From the NCBI GenBank assembly GCA_040397215.1, contig JBBAWK010000004.1: a stretch of 64,000 nt of DNA. One strand, 5' to 3'. Made by a program: the position numbers and the translations under genes. The notes below the pieces were generated by a model, which was not told the DNA's origin, made no database searches, and was given only the letters and a program-made list of their open reading frames with translations. This DNA comes from Candidatus Limnocylindrus sp. (GTDB taxonomy: Bacteria > Chloroflexota > Limnocylindria > Limnocylindrales > Limnocylindraceae). Positions 39,790 to 48,736 of the stretch are shown here, piece by piece (the stretch's first letter is position 1; the number at the start of each line of letters is the position of its first letter).

Positions 39790-41067
39790 ATGAGCACCAC
39801 CCCAGTACGAACCGATGCCCAGCGCGCGGTCATCACCGGCTACGGCGCCATCACGCCAATCGGCAATAGCGCCGGCGAGTACTGGGAGAGCCTGATCGCA
39901 GGACGCTCAGGTGCAGGCCTCATCACCCACTTCGACGCCTCACCAAACGACGTGCGCATCGCCGCCGAGGTGAAGGGCTTCGATCCGCTCCTCACCATGG
40001 ATATGAAGATGGCGCGCCGCATGAGCCGCTTCGTGCAGTTCGCGATCGCCGCCGCGACCGAAGCCATCGAACATGCTGGCCTCGCCGACATCGCCAGCTG
40101 GGAGCCGGAGCGCCGCGACCGCGTCGCCACGGTCATCAACACCGGCGGTGGTGGCATCGAGCAGGTCACCATGGGGAGCGATGCGTATCGCGAGAAGGGT
40201 GGCCGCTTCGTGAGCGCCTTCGCCATTCCCGCCCTCAGCCCAAGCATGGGCGCCTGCATGGTCAGCATGAAGTACGGCCTCACCGGCGCCGCGATCACGC
40301 AGGCCGCCGCCTGCGCCACGGGCGTGCTCGCCTTTCAAGATGCACTCCGCCTGATCCGCAGCGGCGAGGCCGACGTGGTCGTTGCCGGCGGCGTCGAGGC
40401 ACCACTCCTGCCGATGGCCTTCGCCGCCCTCAGCAACATGGGCGCCCTCAGCAAGCGCAACGATGACCCAACGCACGCCAGCCGACCGTTCGACAAGAAC
40501 CGCGACGGCTTCGTCTTCGGCGAGGGTGGCGCAGTCTTCGTGGTCGAGTCGCTCGCCCACGCCAAGGCGCGCGGCGCCACGATTCGCGCCGAGCTGCTCG
40601 GTGCCGGTGCAACCGCCGACGCATTCCATATCAGCGCCCCGGAGCCAACCGGCCGCGGCGCGGCAGGCTCCATGACCAAGGCGATCCTCGATGGCGGCGC
40701 CGTGATCGACGATATCAGCTACATCGTGGCGCACGGCACCAGCACCCCACTCAACGACCTCACCGAGACGAAGGCGATCAAGCGCGCCCTTGGCGATCAC
40801 GCCTACAAGATTCCGATCAGCTCCCCAAAGAGCATGGTCGGCCACCTCTTGGGTGGCGCTGGCGCCGTTGCCGGGCTCGCCGCCATCAAGGCAATCGAGA
40901 CGGGCACCGTGCCACCAACGATCAACCTCGACACCCCAGACCCAGAGTGCGACCTCGACTATGTGCCGCACACCGCGCGCACGAATCAGCCAGTGGACCG
41001 CGTGCTGATCAACGGATTTGGCTTCGGTGGCCAGAACGCCTCAGCGCTCTTCGGGAAGCTCCGCTAG
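39790..41067 (+). CDS. fabF: Beta-ketoacyl-ACP synthase II (copy 2)
   Basis: AACATG, HGTST, KSMVGHLLG, NGFGFGGQN. Confidence 0.92.
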   Translation: MSTTPVRTDAQRAVITGYGAITPIGNSAGEYWESLIAGRSGAGLITHFDASPNDVRIAAEVKGFDPLLTMDMKMARRMSRFVQFAIAAATEAIEHAGLADIASWEPERRDRVATVINTGGGGIEQVTMGSDAYREKGGRFVSAFAIPALSPSMGACMVSMKYGLTGAAITQAAACATGVLAFQDALRLIRSGEADVVVAGGVEAPLLPMAFAALSNMGALSKRNDDPTHASRPFDKNRDGFVFGEGGAVFVVESLAHAKARGATIRAELLGAGATADAFHISAPEPTGRGAAGSMTKAILDGGAVIDDISYIVAHGTSTPLNDLTETKAIKRALGDHAYKIPISSPKSMVGHLLGGAGAVAGLAAIKAIETGTVPPTINLDTPDPECDLDYVPHTARTNQPVDRVLINGFGFGGQNASALFGKLR

Positions 41068-41112
41068 TAACTCACCACACAACAGAGCGGCCTTTTAAGC
41101 ACGCGGGAAACA

Positions 41113-41149
41113 GTTCGGCCCGACCCGCACGAGGCGGATCGGGCCGAAC
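41113..41149. terminator. Hairpin terminator between fabF and RCC1 gene 1
   Basis: GTTCGGCCCGA...TCGGGCCGAAC stem, followed by UGUUU on the minus strand. Confidence 0.75.
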
Positions 41150-41167
41150 GATTGAACTAGCTAACCG

Positions 41168-42193
41168 TTACTGCACAGCCACCGGGACTGAGCTGTCGGT
41201 CGGGCCTTGGCCGTTGCCAAGGTTGCCGTTGCCGTTATCGCCCCAACAATAGATTGTGCCCCTATCGGTGAGCGCACAGATATGGTAGTCCCCTGTCGTA
41301 TAGGAGACCGCCCCACGCACCGCCATCGTCTGCGGAGTGAAATTTCGCCAAGGGGTTGCTGAGACGCTTTCTGGGAACATCCCATCAGAGGTGTACCCCA
41401 CGCACTGCATCTTCCCGGAACTCATCCCGTAGCACTGCGAGAATGACTCGGGGCTACTGCCAGCAATTGAGGTGTATTTCGCGCCACCCATGGCGAGGGT
41501 CGGAACGGAGGAATTAGTAAAATTGCCGTTCCCGAAGGTGCCGTAAAAGTTTTCGCCCCAGCCGTAGGCTTTTCCTTGTGTCGATAGGGCGCTAGTGTGA
41601 CCGAAACCGAGCGAGAGATCCCTGAACTTCAGGCCGCCGGCAACGGCGACAGGCACCGAGCTGTCATCGAGTTCTGCATCATTATCGCCGAGTTGTCCAT
41701 ATTGGTTCCGGCCCCAGCAATAGGCACGCCCCTGGGCAGTAAGGCCGCAGCTGTGTTGGCCGCCTACCTCAAGGCTCGCGAACTTCAGGCCGCCAGCAAC
41801 GGCGACGGGGACAGAACTTTCAGAATCTGGATCTTCGAGGGCTGAGCCATTGCCGAGCGCACCGTAAGGGCCATCTCCCCAGCAGTAGGCTTGACCATTA
41901 GTGGTGAGGCCGCAGGTGTGAGACTCGCCCGCCCCAATGCTCGCGAACTTCAGGCCTCCGGCGACAGCGACGGGGGTCAAGACATGTGCACTCGTTGACC
42001 CGTTGCCAAGCTCGCCCCGGTTATTGTGACCCCAGCAGTAGGCGTCTCCTCGCGCGGTCAGCGCGCAAGAGAATTGAAAGCCCACTGAAAGCGCCACATA
42101 GCGCCGACTGGCGGCATCAGCAGAAGTCGCGCCAGCCGCGACAAGGGTGAGGACCGCGAGCAGCGTGACGCTGCGGGTCAGTAAGGTACGCAT
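41168..42193 (-). CDS. Secreted RCC1/BLIP-II repeat beta-propeller protein (1)
   Basis: Signal peptide MRTLLTRSVTLLAVLTLVAAG; repeated HxCxLTxxGxAYCWGxNxxGQLG...PVAVAGGLKF; SD AGGAGG. Confidence 0.88.
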   Translation of the reverse strand: MRTLLTRSVTLLAVLTLVAAGATSADAASRRYVALSVGFQFSCALTARGDAYCWGHNNRGELGNGSTSAHVLTPVAVAGGLKFASIGAGESHTCGLTTNGQAYCWGDGPYGALGNGSALEDPDSESSVPVAVAGGLKFASLEVGGQHSCGLTAQGRAYCWGRNQYGQLGDNDAELDDSSVPVAVAGGLKFRDLSLGFGHTSALSTQGKAYGWGENFYGTFGNGNFTNSSVPTLAMGGAKYTSIAGSSPESFSQCYGMSSGKMQCVGYTSDGMFPESVSATPWRNFTPQTMAVRGAVSYTTGDYHICALTDRGTIYCWGDNGNGNLGNGQGPTDSSVPVAVQ

Positions 42194-42346
42194 TCGTTCG
42201 CCTCCTGGCGAACCCGGCGGGCGGAGGTCCGCTACTTGCTGGAACCTGGCGGCAACGTGCCCCTTACGGTCCAGCGTGCGTGAAGGGCACCAGATGTGAG
42301 GGAGTCTCCCAATGGGGTTGCGACGCGGGTGGGGGAGATACCCCAA

Positions 42347-42418
42347 GACCGCGTGCTGATCAACGGCTTCGGCTTCGGCGGCCAGAACGCCTCTGCGCTA
42401 TTCGGAAAGCTTCGCTAA
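42347..42418 (+). pseudogene. fabF: Duplicated 3' end of fabF (last 23 codons plus stop)
   Basis: Encodes DRVLINGFGFGGQNASALFGKLR*, identical in protein to 40996-41067, with 8 third-position differences. Confidence 0.92.
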
Positions 42419-42511
42419 TAAGCCACGGCGCAACAGAGCAACCCCTGTGCACACACCGCCACGTCGTCACGCATAACGTTTCGAACTTCTCGACGCGGAA
42501 CACAGTAAACA

Positions 42512-42548
42512 GTTCGGCCCGACCCGCACAAGGCGAATCGGGCCGAAC
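42512..42548. terminator. Hairpin terminator downstream of RCC1 gene 2 (paralog of 41113-41149)
   Basis: Same GTTCGGCCCGA...TCGGGCCGAAC stem, with 2 substitutions in the upper part. Confidence 0.75.
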
Positions 42549-42566
42549 GAGTTAACCATCTAGCCG

Positions 42567-43811
42567 CTATTGCACAGCCTGCGGACCCTTCTCGTCGGAG
42601 GCGTCCGTGGTGCCATCTCCGAGCTGACCGTCGTTGTTGTAGCCCCAGCAGTAGGCCTTGCCTCGTGCCGTGAGGGCACAGGTGTGGGACTCCCCGCCCC
42701 GAACGCTGGCAAACTTGAGTCCACCAATCACCGCCTGTGGGCCGTTCTCATCGGAGTCGTTCGTGGTGCCATCACCGAGCTGACCGTCGACGTTGTAGCC
42801 CCAGCAGTAGGCGCGTCCCTTTGCGGTAAGAGCACAAGTGTGAGATTCGCCAGGGTTGATGCTGGCAAAGCGTAGTCCACCGATGACCGCCTGTGGGCCG
42901 TTCTCATGCGAGTCGTTCGTGGTGCCATCACCGAGCTGACCGTCTTCGTTGTCTCCCCAGCAGTAGGCCTCACCATTCACAGTCAAGGCGCAGGTGAAAT
43001 TGTGTCCCCCGTCACGGCTCACGTTCAGACTGGCGAACGTATGGTTGCCAATCACTTTCTGCGGGCCGTTCTCATACGAGTCGTTCGTGGTGCCATCACC
43101 GAGCTCACCCTGGCTGTTTGCGCCCCAGCAGTAGGCCTCACCATGTGCAGTCAAAGCGCAGGCATGATCGTCGCCGGCGCTGATGCTGACAAACTTGAGT
43201 CCGCCGATCACCGCCTGTGGGCCATTGACGCCGGATGCGGTCGTGGTGCCATCCCCAAGCCGACCGTCGCCGTCAGCACCGCCGTTAGCACCCCAACAGT
43301 ACGCCTTACCCCGCGCTGTGACGGCGCAGGTAAACAGATCGCCGGCGCTGATGCTGACAAACTTGAGTCCGCCGATCACCGCCTGTGGGCCATTGACGCC
43401 GGATGCGGTCGTGGTGCCATCCCCAAGCCGACCGTCGCCGTTAGCACCGCCGTTAGCACCCCAACAGTAGGCGCGCCCTTTGGTGGTCAGAGCGCACGTG
43501 TGGTCTTGGCCGGCACTGATGCTGGCAAACTTGAGTCCACCGATCACCGCCTGCGGGCCGTTCTCAAGGGAGTTGTTCAAGGTGCCATCACCAAGGGCGC
43601 CAGCCGGAACCATAACGAAGTCGCCATTGTAAGAACCTTGAGATCCCCAGCAGTAGGCCTGGCCTCGTGCCGTGAGGGCACAGGTGTGGTCTCCGCTAGT
43701 CGTGATTTGCACATAACGATTGCCACTTGCGGCAACAGCAGAAGTCGAGCCCGCCGCGACAAGGGTGAGGACCGCGAGCAGCGTGACGCTGCGGGTCAGT
43801 AAGGTACGCAT
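42567..43811 (-). CDS. Secreted RCC1/BLIP-II repeat beta-propeller protein (2)
   Basis: Same signal peptide; seven repeats of CALTxxGxAYCWG...LGDGTT...GPQAVIGGLKF. Confidence 0.9.
   Translation of the reverse strand: MRTLLTRSVTLLAVLTLVAAGSTSAVAASGNRYVQITTSGDHTCALTARGQAYCWGSQGSYNGDFVMVPAGALGDGTLNNSLENGPQAVIGGLKFASISAGQDHTCALTTKGRAYCWGANGGANGDGRLGDGTTTASGVNGPQAVIGGLKFVSISAGDLFTCAVTARGKAYCWGANGGADGDGRLGDGTTTASGVNGPQAVIGGLKFVSISAGDDHACALTAHGEAYCWGANSQGELGDGTTNDSYENGPQKVIGNHTFASLNVSRDGGHNFTCALTVNGEAYCWGDNEDGQLGDGTTNDSHENGPQAVIGGLRFASINPGESHTCALTAKGRAYCWGYNVDGQLGDGTTNDSDENGPQAVIGGLKFASVRGGESHTCALTARGKAYCWGYNNDGQLGDGTTDASDEKGPQAVQ
43171..43469. repeat. Near-perfect internal direct repeat (131 bp, period 168 bp) in RCC1 gene 2
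   Basis: 43171-43301 versus 43339-43469 differ at one position by my reading. Confidence 0.85.
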
Positions 43812-43994
43812 TCGTTCGCCTCCTGGCGAACCCGGCGGGCGGAGGTCCGCTTACTGCTGTGACCTAGTGGCAACTTGCCCCTTCACGATCCAGCGTAGTG
43901 GGAAGGTACCAAATGTGAGGGAATCTTCCAATAGGGCTCCGACACGGGTGGAGGAGATACCCCAAGACCGCGGGCGGCGCCGCCCTCGGACACG

Positions 43995-44292
43995 CTAAGC
44001 GGTGAGCCTCAAGCGCCGAAGGCGCAGGGCGTTTGTTACCACAGTGACGCTGGAAAGGTCCATGGCGGCGGCCAAAACAGGACCCAATCCAATGCCGAAG
44101 GCCGGGAGGGCGAGGCCCGCGGCGAGTGGCACGAGGAGGATGTTGTAACCAAAGGCCCAGCCAAGGTTCTGCTTGATGATGCGCGTGGTGGCACGCGCGA
44201 GATCAACAAGGAGCGGCACGCCGCGCGAGTCTGCGCCGCTCATCGTTGCAGCTGTCGCGTCGATGGGGATCTCGGTGCCCCCACCTATAGAT
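43995..44292 (-). pseudogene. copA: Decaying duplicate of the copA 3' end
   Basis: Encodes GTEI...SGADSRGVPLLVDLARATTRIIKQNLGWAFGYNILLVPLAAG...SSVTVVTNALRLRRL, matching copA ~46370-46662; small indels; no 5' part. Confidence 0.9.
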
Positions 44293-44315
44293 CGGCTGTG
44301 ATTGCACCTTCCAAA

Positions 44316-45524
44316 CTACGCCGGCAGTTGCTGCCGCCATGAAGAGAAACTCCGAACTGATCCTGCAGCCGGCAGCCTCAGCCATGGATATGGGTGCACC
44401 TCAGCGAGTGACGTGAACTTCCTAAACGAAGGAACGGGCGCAAAGGTCACGGCTACCGAGTGCTCCTGTGCAAACTGATAGGGATCACCGATGTATGCCT
44501 CTACACCTCGCTGCGCACTGAGCTCGCCAAGGGCCTGCAGATAGAAACCAATTCGCCGCGCGCTCAGCTGTAGCTTCCTCAGCGCACTCTCATTGAAGAC
44601 AAAGAGCGCGGGCAAGGTTGGATTGGCCACAAGCGCTGGATCCTGCAGTCCGAGAGAGTCAATCGTCAGGAGCACATGCGTTGCGGGGCGTTGGATTCTG
44701 GGCGTGATCGGCCCAGTGGTGCGCTGCACGTCAGGGTCGTTGTCGAGCTGCGAATCTCGCTCGAGCTGTTCTAGTTGGACCTCGCGCGGGAATTCCTCGA
44801 TCGGGCAGTTGGCCTTGAGCGGACATCGTGAACAGATGCCTGGCGCTCGCTTGTCCACCTGCCACTTTGCAAAGCCGTAGGGCTTACCAGTGCCTGCACC
44901 GACCGTCCACTGCCATCCAAGCAGGTTGGCGGCCCTGGAGCCATCGATGAGCTCTTGGTGCATGCGCTCCTGGCCCGAGATCCAGCCAACACCATTGCGA
45001 ACCGTCCAATGGGATGCCAGCCACATGCGAGTCTGATTGACGAGCCAGCCATCCCCCTCGAGCTCAGAGACAACTTCGTCGATGCAGAGCATCTCCCGAT
45101 TCCAGCCGTTCCCCTCGCCACTCCAGTTGGCGGCAAAGCGCAGGTTCTCGAAGAGGCGCACTCCAATGCGGGCGTAGAGGTGCCGCGCATACTCCTGCCA
45201 CCAGAGCTCATCGCGAAACTTCTCACGATCTTTGGCTGGTGCACCCTGTACGGCGTCATAGACCTGGCGCAGCGTGATCATGTTGTGACGAATGTATGGA
45301 GAGAGCACGCTCGCGCCTCGATTCGCCCGTGGAAGCACTTGCGAGCGGCGGTCGGCGTACCCCCTGATATCAAGCTGCTGGAGCGCCCTGTCGGCCGCCT
45401 GTTGCCCGCCGCTGATTGAGCTCAGGCCAAGCGTCCCTGAATAGAGGCCCTCGAAGTGTTCGGCCAGTAGTTTGAGGGGGTCCTCGGTCGCATCGATCTT
45501 CTTTAGGCCGAGGGGGGTCACCAT
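44316..45524 (-). CDS. Photolyase/cryptochrome family protein with an N-terminal FAD-binding domain (NewPHL-like topology)
   Basis: YADRR, SVLSPYIRH, KFRDELWWQEY, GWLVNQTRMWLASHW, LIDGSRAANLLGWQW; C-terminal alpha/beta domain; start overlaps or abuts the SDR stop (45521/45524). Confidence 0.82.
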   Translation of the reverse strand: MVTPLGLKKIDATEDPLKLLAEHFEGLYSGTLGLSSISGGQQAADRALQQLDIRGYADRRSQVLPRANRGASVLSPYIRHNMITLRQVYDAVQGAPAKDREKFRDELWWQEYARHLYARIGVRLFENLRFAANWSGEGNGWNREMLCIDEVVSELEGDGWLVNQTRMWLASHWTVRNGVGWISGQERMHQELIDGSRAANLLGWQWTVGAGTGKPYGFAKWQVDKRAPGICSRCPLKANCPIEEFPREVQLEQLERDSQLDNDPDVQRTTGPITPRIQRPATHVLLTIDSLGLQDPALVANPTLPALFVFNESALRKLQLSARRIGFYLQALGELSAQRGVEAYIGDPYQFAQEHSVAVTFAPVPSFRKFTSLAEVHPYPWLRLPAAGSVRSFSSWRQQLPA

Positions 45525-46234
45525 GGGATTACCTGGCGCTCCTCCCACAGCACTCCGGTCAACCTCTCTTGATCGGACGCGCCATCACTGTTGAACGGTC
45601 GGGTTGCCAACCAGATCGCCGTATCTGCGCCCTCTTCGGCAGAGAGTGGTGCAGTTGGCCCGCCCATATCGGTTCGGGAGTGATTCGGGCAGACAGCGTC
45701 GATCAGGAAGCCGCGCTTGCCATGGAGCGTTTCATGCGCAAGGTTGCGCACGAGTGCATTGACCCCCGCCTTGCTCACACGGTACGGCACCAATCCCCCT
45801 GCATTGCCTGGTCCTGACATGCGACCAAGACACGCCGAGAAGACAACCACTCGCCCCTGGCGCGCCTCAGCCATTGGCTTCGCAAGAATATTGAGTGTAC
45901 AAAAGACAGAATCCAAATTAATTGAGAGCACTCGGCGCCACTCGCTAGTGTTGGTGGCAAAGGTTTTGGAGGACTTTTCACTCATCACCCCGTGCGCAAG
46001 GATCAGAACGTCGGGGGCACCGCGCGTGGCGAGGATCGCCGTGAATGCTTGCTCGGTAGCCTGGAGATCCGCGAGGTCCACACTCTGGTACTCACACCCT
46101 AGGCTTTGGGCAGCTGCGGCCAGGCGCGGTTCATCCTTTGCGAGCAGCAACACCGTTTGGCCGTTCGCCCGCAGCGCCTTGGCGCACTCAAAACCAAGAC
46201 CTCGAGAGCCCCCCGTGATCAGGGTGTATCCCAT
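45518..46234 (-). CDS. Short-chain dehydrogenase/reductase
   Basis: TGGSRGLG, YRVSK, RTDMGG...GADTAIWLA; SD AAGGAGG. Confidence 0.88.
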   Translation of the reverse strand: MGYTLITGGSRGLGFECAKALRANGQTVLLLAKDEPRLAAAAQSLGCEYQSVDLADLQATEQAFTAILATRGAPDVLILAHGVMSEKSSKTFATNTSEWRRVLSINLDSVFCTLNILAKPMAEARQGRVVVFSACLGRMSGPGNAGGLVPYRVSKAGVNALVRNLAHETLHGKRGFLIDAVCPNHSRTDMGGPTAPLSAEEGADTAIWLATRPFNSDGASDQERLTGVLWEERQVIPW

Positions 46235-46347
46235 GGCGGAGAACCTCCTTGCTTTGACTCGGCTGTCACGTGCACCTGCGGCAGAGACGACAGTTTGCCG
46301 ACCAAACTTGCGCCAATCAGTAACTCGAGAAATCCTAGCAGGGGGTG

Positions 46348-48678
46348 CTAGTTCAGCCGATCTCGCTCGAGCGGCAGTCTTCGCAGCCTTAGGGCATTCA
46401 ACACCACCGTCACGCTCGATCCGCCCATTGCGGCAGCGGCGAGTGCTGGGTCAAGGCCAATTCCGAATGTTGGAAGCAGGAGGCCGGCGGCGAGTGGCAC
46501 CAGGAAGATGTTGTAGCCAAAGGCCCAGGCAAGGTTCTGCTTGATGATGCGCGTGGTGGCGCGTGCGAGGTCCACAAGGAGCGGCACACCGCGCGGGTCG
46601 GCGCCGCTCAGCGTTGCAGCTGAGGCGTCAATGGCGATCTCGGTGCCGCCACCCATGGAGATGCCCACGTCAGCGGCGGCGAGCGCTGGGGCGTCGTTGA
46701 CGCCGTCCCCAATCATTGCCACGGGTCCACTGCCGCTGCGTCGAATCTCAGCGATCGCCTCGCCCTTACCGCCAGGGAGAATGCCGCCGCGGGCGCGCTC
46801 TGATGGAATGTTGAGATCGCGGGCGATGACGTTCACCACCTCTTGGCGATCGCCGCTGATGATCCACGACTCAATGCCGCGCGCGGTAAGGGCCCGAATC
46901 GCTGCGGCACTCTCTGGTCGAACGGTGTCGGCGAGGCTAAGTGCGCCGGCTGATTCTTCGTTGATTGAGATGAAGAGCGGTGTGCGACCAGCGGCCGCCT
47001 CTGCTGTTGCCCAGCTGGTCAGCTCAGGATTGGTAGTAGCGGTGAATGCCTCAGTGCCGATGCGTACAGCTGCGCCATCAACGCTGGCGCTTACGCCGTG
47101 ACCGGCATGCATGACAAAGTCGGTGGCCTTTGCTGCGACCGTGCCGGCGGCGCGCACGATCGCGCGGGCGAGTGGGTGCTCCGATGGACTCTCCACTGCG
47201 GCGGCAATCTGCAAGAGGCGATCGGTGTCGCCAGCGAGTGGACCGGTGGCGAGGGCGAGTCGGCCGACGAGGGCGTGCTGGCCGAGGGTGAGGGTGCCGG
47301 TCTTATCCCAGACCACGGCGCGCAGCTTCCCCGCCGCCTCGAGGATGGCGGCGTCGCGCACGAGGATTCCCGCCTCGGCGCCTCGACCAGTGCCGGCGAT
47401 CACGGCGGTTGGGGTGGCGAGGCCCATGGCGCAGGGGCAGGCGACCACGAGCACGGCGATGGCGGTGGCTACGGCGCGCACCAGGCGCGGCTCTGCTCCG
47501 AGCAGATACCAGCCGACAAAGGTCGCCACGGCGATCAACAGGATGGCCGGAACGAACACCTCGGAGATGCGATCAGCAAGACGAGCAATCGCAGGCTTCG
47601 ACCCCTGCGCCCGCTCGACCATGGCCACGATGCGTGCCAGCGTGGTGTTGGCGCCAACCTGTGTGGCGCGCATAACGATTGACGCATCGGTCAGCAGCGT
47701 GCCCGCGGCAAGTCGGCTCCCTGGGCCGCGCTCCACTGGGAGTGACTCACCGGTGATTGCCGATTCATCGACGGCGGCGCGGCCACTCACGATGATGCCG
47801 TCAACGGGAATGCGACCACCAGGCCGAATCCGCAGTAGGTCACCGGCAATGATCTTGTTCACGGCGATGGTGATTGCGGTTGGGGCGTCGGCGGTTGCAA
47901 GTAGTTCAGCCTCTTTTGGCTGCAGCGCCAGGATCCCGCGCACCGCGCTGGTTGTCTGCTCCTTGGCGCGTGCCTCCATCCAGCGACCGAGTGCGACAAA
48001 GCCGAGAATGAGTGCTGCCGCATCCCACGTTGCGTGCGCGGGAATGCCAACGCGCATCAGCTGCGAATGGAAGAGGGTAATCGCCACCGACCAACCCCAT
48101 GCCGCTGTGGTGCCAAGGCTGACGAGTGTCTCCATGGTGAGTGAGCCGTGGCGCAGTGCGCGCACTGCGCGCGAGTGGAAACGCCAGCCAACGGCGAACT
48201 GAATGATGGTGGAGGGCACGATCAGGATCCAGTTGATGCGCTCCATGCTGATGAAGAACCACGGCTGCAACATCAGCACCATTGCGCCGAAGCCAAAGGC
48301 GGTGGCAATGATTCCGTCACGAAGCAGTCCGCGCGTCTCTTTGGTGCGCGCGGCAACAAGCTCAGCATCGAGTGCCTCGCGCGCCTCCTGTGCATCGGCA
48401 TCCCCTTCGCGTCCGGCGAGAGCGAGTGCCGCGGCGGGCACTTCGTATCCCGCAGCGGTAATGACCGCAACAAGATCGGCAACGCCCGTTGCCTCTGGCG
48501 CGTATTGAATGGTGGCCATCGAGGTCGCAAGGTTCACGCTCGCCCCGCTCACGCCGTCGGCCTTCTTCAGGAATCGCTCCACGCGGTTCACGCACGAGGC
48601 GCAGGTCATGCCGGTGACGGGGAGGGCAATCTCCGCCACGGGGGTGGTTGGCGCCGCAGGAACAGGCTCAGTCAACAT
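46348..48678 (-). CDS. copA: Copper-translocating P1B-type ATPase
   Basis: GMTCASC HMA domain, TGES, CPC, DKTGT, SEHP, GDGVND, YN and MxxSS. Confidence 0.93.
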   Translation of the reverse strand: MLTEPVPAAPTTPVAEIALPVTGMTCASCVNRVERFLKKADGVSGASVNLATSMATIQYAPEATGVADLVAVITAAGYEVPAAALALAGREGDADAQEAREALDAELVAARTKETRGLLRDGIIATAFGFGAMVLMLQPWFFISMERINWILIVPSTIIQFAVGWRFHSRAVRALRHGSLTMETLVSLGTTAAWGWSVAITLFHSQLMRVGIPAHATWDAAALILGFVALGRWMEARAKEQTTSAVRGILALQPKEAELLATADAPTAITIAVNKIIAGDLLRIRPGGRIPVDGIIVSGRAAVDESAITGESLPVERGPGSRLAAGTLLTDASIVMRATQVGANTTLARIVAMVERAQGSKPAIARLADRISEVFVPAILLIAVATFVGWYLLGAEPRLVRAVATAIAVLVVACPCAMGLATPTAVIAGTGRGAEAGILVRDAAILEAAGKLRAVVWDKTGTLTLGQHALVGRLALATGPLAGDTDRLLQIAAAVESPSEHPLARAIVRAAGTVAAKATDFVMHAGHGVSASVDGAAVRIGTEAFTATTNPELTSWATAEAAAGRTPLFISINEESAGALSLADTVRPESAAAIRALTARGIESWIISGDRQEVVNVIARDLNIPSERARGGILPGGKGEAIAEIRRSGSGPVAMIGDGVNDAPALAAADVGISMGGGTEIAIDASAATLSGADPRGVPLLVDLARATTRIIKQNLAWAFGYNIFLVPLAAGLLLPTFGIGLDPALAAAAMGGSSVTVVLNALRLRRLPLERDRLN

Positions 48679-48736
48679 ACTCAGGGGGAGTATACGCCTC
48701 ATTTGATTGGTAAGTGCCTGCGGCTAGGCTGCGCGC

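Follow-up and report, generated by a model that had tools for sequence, protein, structure and literature searches.

Introduction

How do genome-reduced freshwater and marine bacteria, with their large pangenomes and almost no mobile elements, gain genes? The question is open, and it takes a concrete form in a 64,000-nt stretch (hereafter the window) of contig JBBAWK010000004.1 from an uncultured species of Candidatus Limnocylindrus (Chloroflexota; GenBank assembly GCA_040397215.1). There, two convergent housekeeping genes, fabF and copA, enclose four minus-strand cargo genes, and among the cargo lie a second 3' end of fabF and a second 3' end of copA, neither attached to a gene of its own. 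An initial annotation, made from the letters alone, had read the locus as a variable island grown inward from both flanks without an integrase, by a general mode of tail replacement at protein-coding 3' ends.

What put these gene ends there? We propose, with moderate confidence, that the fabF-copA gap is an integrase-free hotspot of gene exchange, where recombination with its anchors in the flanking core genes stacked versions of the gap, completed by one illegitimate join in the manner of homology-facilitated illegitimate recombination (HFIR). The window corresponds to G000:C4:46117-110116, that is, to part of contig C4 of a genome (G000) of 1.14 Mb that is 92% complete; statements that a recombinase or DNA uptake gene was not found are bounded by that completeness. 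The genus is represented by 42 species, and the locus was viewed in 33 species other than our own, with fabF and copA on one contig in 24 of them.

Results

Orphan ends of fabF and copA

Open reading frames (ORFs), Pfam domains and repeat comparison confirm the order described in the initial annotation, a live gene, then cargo, then a further tail, between convergent fabF and copA (Table 1). The fabF repeat pairs 40996-41088 with 42347-42439 (93 nt, 86% identity), and the copA repeat pairs 44064-44291 with 46432-46659 (228 nt, 83%; 257 nt, 80.9% and E 3e-62 in a whole-genome self-blastn); neither match is due to chance. What the annotation missed is that the two RCC1 genes belong to units that share their flanks from end to end. 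The units lie head to tail at 40996-42346 and 42347-43975, and each is made of a fabF tail, a hairpin terminator, an RCC1 body and a signal-peptide/leader block. Both flanks are homologous, with 84% identity in the terminator hairpin and 92% and 80% in the signal peptide and 5' leader, where about 125 nt are almost identical; the bodies are just 43% identical as protein. The motif GACCGCG(T/G)GC marks the unit boundary at 40996, 42347 and 43966, and the joint between RCC1 leader and fabF tail sits on this microhomology.

The substitutions in the orphan tails carry information on where they came from. Over 75 positions the two fabF tails show eight differences, all of them synonymous and at third codon positions (counting TAG/TAA). 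Comparison with five relatives assigns four of them to the orphan copy; by our own arithmetic, the chance of four random changes in 75 nt all falling on third positions is about 0.01. Measured against eight close relatives, the orphan copA tail has a synonymous divergence (dS) of 0.81-1.45 and a nonsynonymous divergence (dN) of 0.11-0.14, with dN/dS at 0.09-0.17, the working orthologues giving 0.03-0.27 among themselves. Synonymous-only differences in fabF and a low dN/dS in copA therefore show that the tails diverged inside working genes of other lineages. Judged in this way, both orphan tails are imported alleles that diverged under purifying selection and not products of local duplication and decay.

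For copA this changes the earlier picture, in which the orphan was the gene's own displaced tail. In codon alignments with close relatives the orphan reaches 72-78% identity and the live tail 82-92%, and blastn finds at most 82% for the orphan in any of 41 other species. It ends in LRLRRLRLTA before the stop codon, as in a distant clade of the genus, whereas neighbours end in LERDRLN; the piece is a foreign copA end, not the old tail of this genome. It adjoins the RCC1-2 leader and was most likely carried in together with the RCC1 version of the gap. The two fabF tails are equally distant from 13 relatives (61-69/75 nt, in a table that leaves out G020), which marks neither of them as the native one.

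These patterns bear on a simpler history, in which unequal exchange or slippage at GACCGCG doubled the block of fabF tail, terminator, RCC1 and leader in situ and the copies then diverged, the copA piece being the remnant of an old second copA or a separate local duplication. Head-to-tail units with both flanks homologous, bounded by a microhomology of 7-10 nt at 40996, 42347 and 43966, are what such a duplication would leave, and an RCC1 leader confined to this genome in the genus would fit as well. Simple tandem duplication also entails whole-length homology and even neutral divergence, whereas divergence along the unit is uneven (about 100% identity in the leader, 86% in the tail and 43% in the protein bodies, with flanks overall at 80-100%). 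Neutral decay does not yield eight synonymous differences out of eight, four of them on the non-functional copy, nor does a local origin suit a copA orphan with the dN/dS and C-terminus described above. Moreover, neither two fabF tails nor two full copA genes were seen at the locus in any of the 33 other species examined. Duplication survives only if the live fabF end was later replaced by another allele, and we consider it unlikely.

The gap across the genus

In all 24 species where one contig spans the locus, fabF and copA are convergent, and at least 15 arrangements lie between them, which supports the earlier view of a variable island. The gap may hold a YciI-like gene alone (G003, G008, G009, G042), DUF1905 with a YciI-like gene (G007, G023, G024), the same pair with a four-gene ATP-binding cassette (ABC) module (G019, G057) or the ABC module alone (G020). 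Other species have a photolyase-like gene with a short-chain dehydrogenase (SDR) gene (G044, G045 and, on a broken contig, G010), a 402-aa protein (G049, G053), a luciferase-like monooxygenase in five combinations (G022, G041, G046, G047, G048), SDR with a YciI-like gene (G054) or two other genes (G055). A contig from run X3 (depth 40, shorter side 184 nt) links position 41067 to 44334 through 30 other letters, so that fabF is followed directly by the photolyase-like gene; this is the photolyase+SDR form without RCC1 genes (type-B).

A partial contig of G005, which covers the fabF side only, has a bacteriorhodopsin-like gene at the same site (L030:1862-2605 on G005:C52; PF01036, 131 bits) beside a 514-aa ORF, and a light-harvesting trait is thus part of this flexible site. 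The convergent stop codons are tightly packed, about 12 nt apart for fabF and the photolyase-like gene in genomes with photolyase and SDR (L068, L066 and L024; G044, G045 and G004) and about 23 nt apart for fabF and the gene of a 237-aa protein in G020 (L063:669-698).

The anchors themselves take part in this variation. In a comparison of 28 species, the final residues of CopA vary together with the module that lies downstream: the protein ends in LERDRLN before SDR, in LERNNLNPVRNPR before the ABC module with its 126-aa gene, in LERERLS before the ABC module without that gene, and in LNRDQLN before the YciI-like gene. The co-varying stretch comprises the last 5-13 residues (window 46348-46420). 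With four endings matched to four neighbours, the very C-terminus of this pump effectively belongs to the mobile island. On the other side, fabF of this genome is a mosaic in which segments of 100 nt match different relatives at 82-100%, and over the final 81 nt the identity falls to 79-89% against all of them. The blocks of 99-100% identity (window 39790-41067 against 14 relatives) are shared with G051 at 501-800, G045 at 701-1000 and G004 at 101-200, which points to a core gene that recombines frequently between species. The co-varying CopA endings, the fabF mosaic and the drop at its tail place the crossovers within the 3' ends of both anchors.

A second scar in three relatives

In G004, G050 and G051 the order is fabF> <photolyase <SDR <copA fragment (139 nt) <ABC module <copA, an order that adds the photolyase+SDR version to the ABC version. 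Together with the spacer that follows it, the 139-nt fragment aligns collinearly with the end of the live copA and its spacer in G000, G010, G044 and G045. The joint coincides with the stop codon of the gene for the 237-aa protein and falls on the shared letters CGGCCT. Here copA is joined 139 nt before its stop, against about 297 nt in the window. Stacking with an orphan piece of an anchor gene has therefore occurred at least twice at this site, independently. Invariant gene content and lack of a second example in the lineage, the two objections that the initial annotation had itself foreseen, are both answered by these comparisons.

Recombinases and the position of the joints

Pfam scans of the main ORFs revealed no recombinase or transposase domain in the four cargo proteins, in agreement with the earlier statement that no mobility gene lies between the flanks. 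PF00589 is matched by only two genes of the genome, both on other contigs (C5 and C7), and these fit XerC/XerD models best; on the integron-integrase model TIGR02249 they score 139 and 127 bits against a cut-off of 265. Serine recombinase (resolvase), rve transposase and Ku were not found in the 92%-complete genome. Behind the RCC1 genes, the hairpins have the fold of ordinary terminators followed by a T-rich tail, no dedicated attC model having been applied.

The tails differ in length (72, 139 and about 297 nt) and two joints sit on microhomologies, which, as the initial annotation had argued from the tail lengths, speaks against a single site-specific recombinase. A recombinase acting in trans might nonetheless have moved the cassettes, whether they were cis-mobilisable, integron-like or of the Xer-dependent IMEX type (integrative mobile element exploiting Xer), and a circular RCC1 cassette could have entered by a single crossover in the fabF tail. 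Both RCC1 units are indeed bounded by the core GACCGCG(T/G)GC and have a cassette-like build of conserved ends around a variable body, and XerC/XerD-like genes are at hand. Against this, no integrase lies in or beside the island, both tyrosine recombinases fall far short of the integron-integrase cut-off, the repeats are 81-86% identical and not identical, the copA joints lie at different places and on different microhomologies, and in none of the other species examined did the core mark the edge of an island. We regard site-specific movement as improbable.

Assembly of the locus

Could two alleles of the population have been stitched into one contig during assembly or binning? The locus does break many metagenome-assembled genomes (MAGs): in eight of the 24 same-genus genomes of the fabF comparison, the contig that carries fabF breaks off in the final third of the gene or no more than 1.3 kb past it, as is expected at a polymorphic site. 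Logan contigs of run X1, however, span 40983-42164, 42204-42783, 43822-44191 and 44389-46559 with 0 differences and bridge three of the four novel joints. Run X1 is possibly the source sample, so it is not independent and is a check on the assembler rather than on the biology. A k-mer graph cannot be joined on microhomologies as short as 7-10 nt, and the hybrid order recurs in three separately assembled genomes (G004, G050 and G051). The junctions are no assembler artefact, and we consider a stitched contig highly improbable.

Searches for a donor and for further cases

Several results weigh against the stacking of gap versions by HFIR-like recombination. The donor arrangement that it calls for, fabF> <RCC1 <copA, was not found in any genome or metagenome contig searched, and the RCC1 leader occurs in this genome only among the 42 of the genus. 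An exact 30-nt probe had 0 matches in the metagenome contig collection, from which near-identical records may be missing, and among the best 80 of 566 metagenomic relatives of RCC1-2 all are at most 50% identical, with fabF, copA or any module gene in none of the flanks. At the third joint, between the photolyase stop codon and the orphan copA tail, neither a microhomology nor a parental sequence could be identified. Tandem duplication predicts the shared flanks of both RCC1 units as well, and the roughly 125 nt of near-identical leader demand an extra assumption, either gene conversion or strong constraint. Of the competence genes that the initial annotation had suggested looking for, ComEC and DprA are present, but an ATPase of the T2SSE type, as in pili or type II secretion systems (T2SS), was not found in the 92%-complete genome, which leaves natural transformation unproven. 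Finally, PMC5361080 reports that HFIR occurs rarely in comparison with plain homologous recombination.

The same holds for the generality of the process. Whole-genome self-blastn yielded 109 non-self pairs, and a search for direct repeats within 20 kb, contig by contig, yielded 32; beyond the fabF and copA tails and the RCC1 repeats of this island, no other orphan gene fragment was among the 32 local pairs. The remainder are intragenic repeats, tandem paralogs and three short intergenic repeats (C1 4618/4999, C16 248/519 and C2 90551/90665). The homology-driven and integrase-free parts of the earlier proposal thus stand, while its claim of a general mode of tail replacement does not follow from the self-comparison of this genome. 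The most recent-looking local duplication of the genome is a 144-nt tandem pair at G000:C7:32279-32562 (99.3% identity).

A dip in metagenomic recruitment had been anticipated across the island. In the contigs of runs X3, X5 and X7, depth at a likeness of 90% or higher is close to nil over 41107-44117, and fabF, the photolyase-SDR pair and copA are covered; the recruitment used assembled contigs, so missing cover is no evidence of absence. One X7 contig, with a depth of just 2.7, links 41067 to 46344 through 27 letters, a hint of an empty site that is too weak to count. A term search of PMC13212565, a paper on Candidatus Limnocylindrus, shows that "genomic island", "hypervariable" and "competence" are absent from it.

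Features of the locus

The features are collected in Table 1. GC content is 0.58-0.64 within 41.0-46.5 kb, against mostly 0.64-0.71 outside.

Table 1. Coordinates of the anchors, tails and cargo in the window, with the basis of each assignment
Feature	Position	Strand	Basis
fabF, beta-ketoacyl-ACP synthase II, live left anchor	39790..41067	+	ORF; Pfam ketoacyl-synt N and C domains; TIGR03150 502 bits, over cut-off; 88-99% aa identity to genus orthologues
Live fabF tail, repeat copy 1 (last 24 codons, stop codon and 18 nt); begins at core GACCGCGTGC	40996..41088	+	repeat family D9; alignment
Hairpin terminator behind RCC1-1	41113..41149	-	repeat D10, inverted repeat I1; fold -34.8 kcal/mol, z -5.5
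RCC1-1, secreted RCC1-repeat (beta-propeller) protein, 340 aa from MRTLL start	41168..42190	-	ORF; PF25390, PF13540, PF00415
Conserved 5' module of unit 1 (signal-peptide codons and leader or promoter), ends at GACCGCG	42107..42356	-	repeats D6 (92%), D8 (80%); alignment columns ~1401-1525 nearly identical
Orphan fabF tail, repeat copy 2	42347..42439	+	86% identical to live tail
Hairpin terminator behind RCC1-2	42512..42548	-	terminator-like match, 16 pairs, T-rich tail; fold -36.3 kcal/mol, z -6.6
RCC1-2, secreted RCC1-repeat protein, 414 aa	42567..43811	-	ORF; Pfam; 43% identical to RCC1-1
Conserved 5' module of unit 2, ends at GACCGCGGGC	43725..43975	-	repeats D6, D8; alignment
Orphan copA tail (~97 codons and stop codon), of foreign origin	43995..~44294	-	repeat D5; translation
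Photolyase/cryptochrome-like cargo gene	44316..45548	-	PF03441, 34.7 bits; weak NCBIfam photolyase matches far under cut-offs
SDR cargo gene	45518..46234	-	PF00106; next to copA in G010, G044, G045, G054
copA, heavy-metal P-type ATPase, live right anchor; its final ~300 nt (46348-46659) pair with the orphan tail as a repeat	46348..48702	-	Pfam E1-E2_ATPase, Hydrolase, HMA; TIGR01525 554 bits; repeat D5

The photolyase-like protein is matched over part of the FAD-binding domain only (residues 155-221, 34.7 bits). It is 93-95% identical in amino acids in six relatives (G004, G010, G044, G045, G050 and G051), where it is paired with SDR, and from its sequence it may represent an uncharacterised, divergent branch of the family. 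The genome also contains a third RCC1-repeat gene, with 68% identity to RCC1-2. This gene is divided over two contig ends (G000:C12:30571-31401 and G000:C1:3-236) whose last and first 55 nt are identical, and it has no cassette flanks. RCC1-like genes of relatives often lie at contig ends too (G019:C53, G019:C61 and G048:C21), which suggests that the RCC1 genes form a variable, repeat-rich family of surface proteins.

Two further candidates were dropped. A change in the sign of GC skew near 46 kb was considered as a replication terminus or dif site, but the signal is weak and tracks local gene orientation, and genes on both strands are interspersed along the contig. The other, an inverted match of 20 nt (I13, 80%) that pairs 44289-44308 with the region of the copA stop, is no better than 12 other chance-level pairs listed with it.

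Discussion

We propose a model in which lineages hold different versions of the fabF-copA gap. These would move between lineages by homologous recombination in both flanking core genes, each moving version carrying the last codons of fabF and/or copA, and the usual outcome would be the replacement of one version by another. In this genome, and separately in G004, G050 and G051, one incoming end would have recombined homologously and the other would have joined illegitimately at a short GC-rich microhomology. The incoming version would thereby have been stacked beside the resident one, with a piece of the anchor gene left as an orphan. For the window, the photolyase+SDR version, as in G044, G045 and G010, would have been combined with an RCC1 version from an unsampled lineage, which would have brought the foreign copA end, and a second RCC1 allele with its own fabF end would have been stacked at the core GACCGCG.

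Two histories lead to the same map. The RCC1 version may have been pasted into a genome with photolyase and SDR, or it may have come first, by double recombination, with photolyase and SDR added later and displacing the imported tail. Either way, growth inward from both flanks, as first envisaged, describes the locus less well than one alternative version of the whole gap pasted in and a second RCC1 allele stacked upon it. The data show the anatomy of the locus, its variability, the foreign origin of the tails and their past under selection, the microhomologies and the lack of recombinases; from these footprints we infer the HFIR process, the order of events and the route by which DNA entered.

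The stray gene ends are most likely ordinary recombination scars of this stacking and not the mark of a new kind of mobile element. The locus is a real and unusually legible case of a known process in an uncultured, genome-reduced lineage. As such it offers a clean natural record, with mosaic core flanks, versions that move with the last codons of their neighbours, and a failed crossover that left stacked versions and datable scars. Synonymous-only orphan tails also provide a simple test to tell imported alleles from local duplications, which could be used over thousands of MAGs to estimate rates of addition versus replacement. In its biology the cargo is what islands of this kind ordinarily carry, with secreted RCC1-repeat proteins and a photolyase-like gene here and rhodopsin and transporters in relatives.

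It is tempting to go further and to speculate that one-sided recombination at core-gene 3' ends is the main route of gene addition in streamlined plankton without integrases or transposons, and that RCC1 units are integrase-free cassettes which loop out between tail repeats and re-enter by homology. The conserved ends of such a cassette would be the fabF tail and terminator on one side and the signal peptide and leader on the other, around a hypervariable body. At present we find this extension, in essence the general mode of the initial annotation, doubtful; within this genome it is seen at this locus alone.

Comparison with known systems

Integrative islands with a tyrosine integrase target the 3' ends of tRNA or protein genes, as the tRNA, tmRNA, guaA and dusA islands do. 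They share with our locus the succession of a live gene, cargo and a direct repeat formed by a displaced second copy of the gene's 3' end. They differ in that here there is no integrase in or next to the element and no near-identical attL/attR at one fixed position, the repeats being 81-86% identical, while crossover positions vary and the orphan copA tail is foreign, not resident. Nor does the locus resemble an integron, with an IntI and attI and an attC behind each cassette: the two tyrosine recombinases are far below the model cut-off, as described above, and the hairpins are terminator-like.

Closer in form are the C-terminal displacement arrays of Rhs, contact-dependent inhibition (CDI) and type VI secretion system (T6SS) loci. 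In these, according to Kirchberger et al. 2017 (PMC5361080), a conserved 5' part stays live, new 3' ends arrive with cargo and older 3' ends are pushed downstream as orphans, all without an integrase. Those arrays are toxin/immunity loci whose orphans are thought to be kept by selection, whereas here the anchors are housekeeping genes, the cargo is unrelated and the fragments are short and dead. No polymorphic toxin with a variable C-terminal domain and immunity gene is present at the fabF-copA locus, and the likeness is in form only.

Hotspots free of mobile genetic elements and flexible islands (PMC5635113, PMC4033161 and PMC11375855) are alike in having a fixed site between core genes, lineage-specific content, no integrases or transposases and mosaic flanks. 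The fabF-copA gap, with differing content at the same site between the same core genes in 24/24 spanning species, has the defining property of a flexible island. Double homologous recombination has been proposed for both such hotspots (Oliveira et al. 2017, PMC5635113) and flexible islands (Lopez-Perez et al. 2014, PMC4033161), and the latter study states that island borders lack clear hallmarks of illegitimate recombination. Double recombination as presented there is scarless, whereas the borders described here can be read as orphan tails and microhomologies.

HFIR would account for such borders. It is known from work by De Vries & Wackernagel 2002, Prudhomme et al. 2002 and Meier & Wackernagel 2003, as cited in PMC5361080, with a related study of conjugation in E. 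coli (PMC3240628), and Kirchberger et al. 2017 (PMC5361080, citing Jackson et al. 2009) put it forward as the mechanism behind T6SS and Rhs arrays. As a process it comprises uptake of linear DNA, RecA-dependent anchoring and end joining. HFIR was defined by transformation or conjugation in the laboratory; here we have sequence footprints in uncultured bacteria, and one joint of three lacks a readable microhomology. What both share is a single homologous anchor paired with an illegitimate joint on a short, GC-rich microhomology, foreign DNA that is added and not exchanged, and no need for a dedicated recombinase. Both footprints expected of HFIR are present at this site: illegitimate joints on microhomology, at GACCGCG between RCC1 leader and fabF tail and at CGGCCT in G004, G050 and G051, and added DNA that is foreign yet shares the anchor gene, as seen in the orphan copA tail and in fabF-tail differences that are all synonymous.

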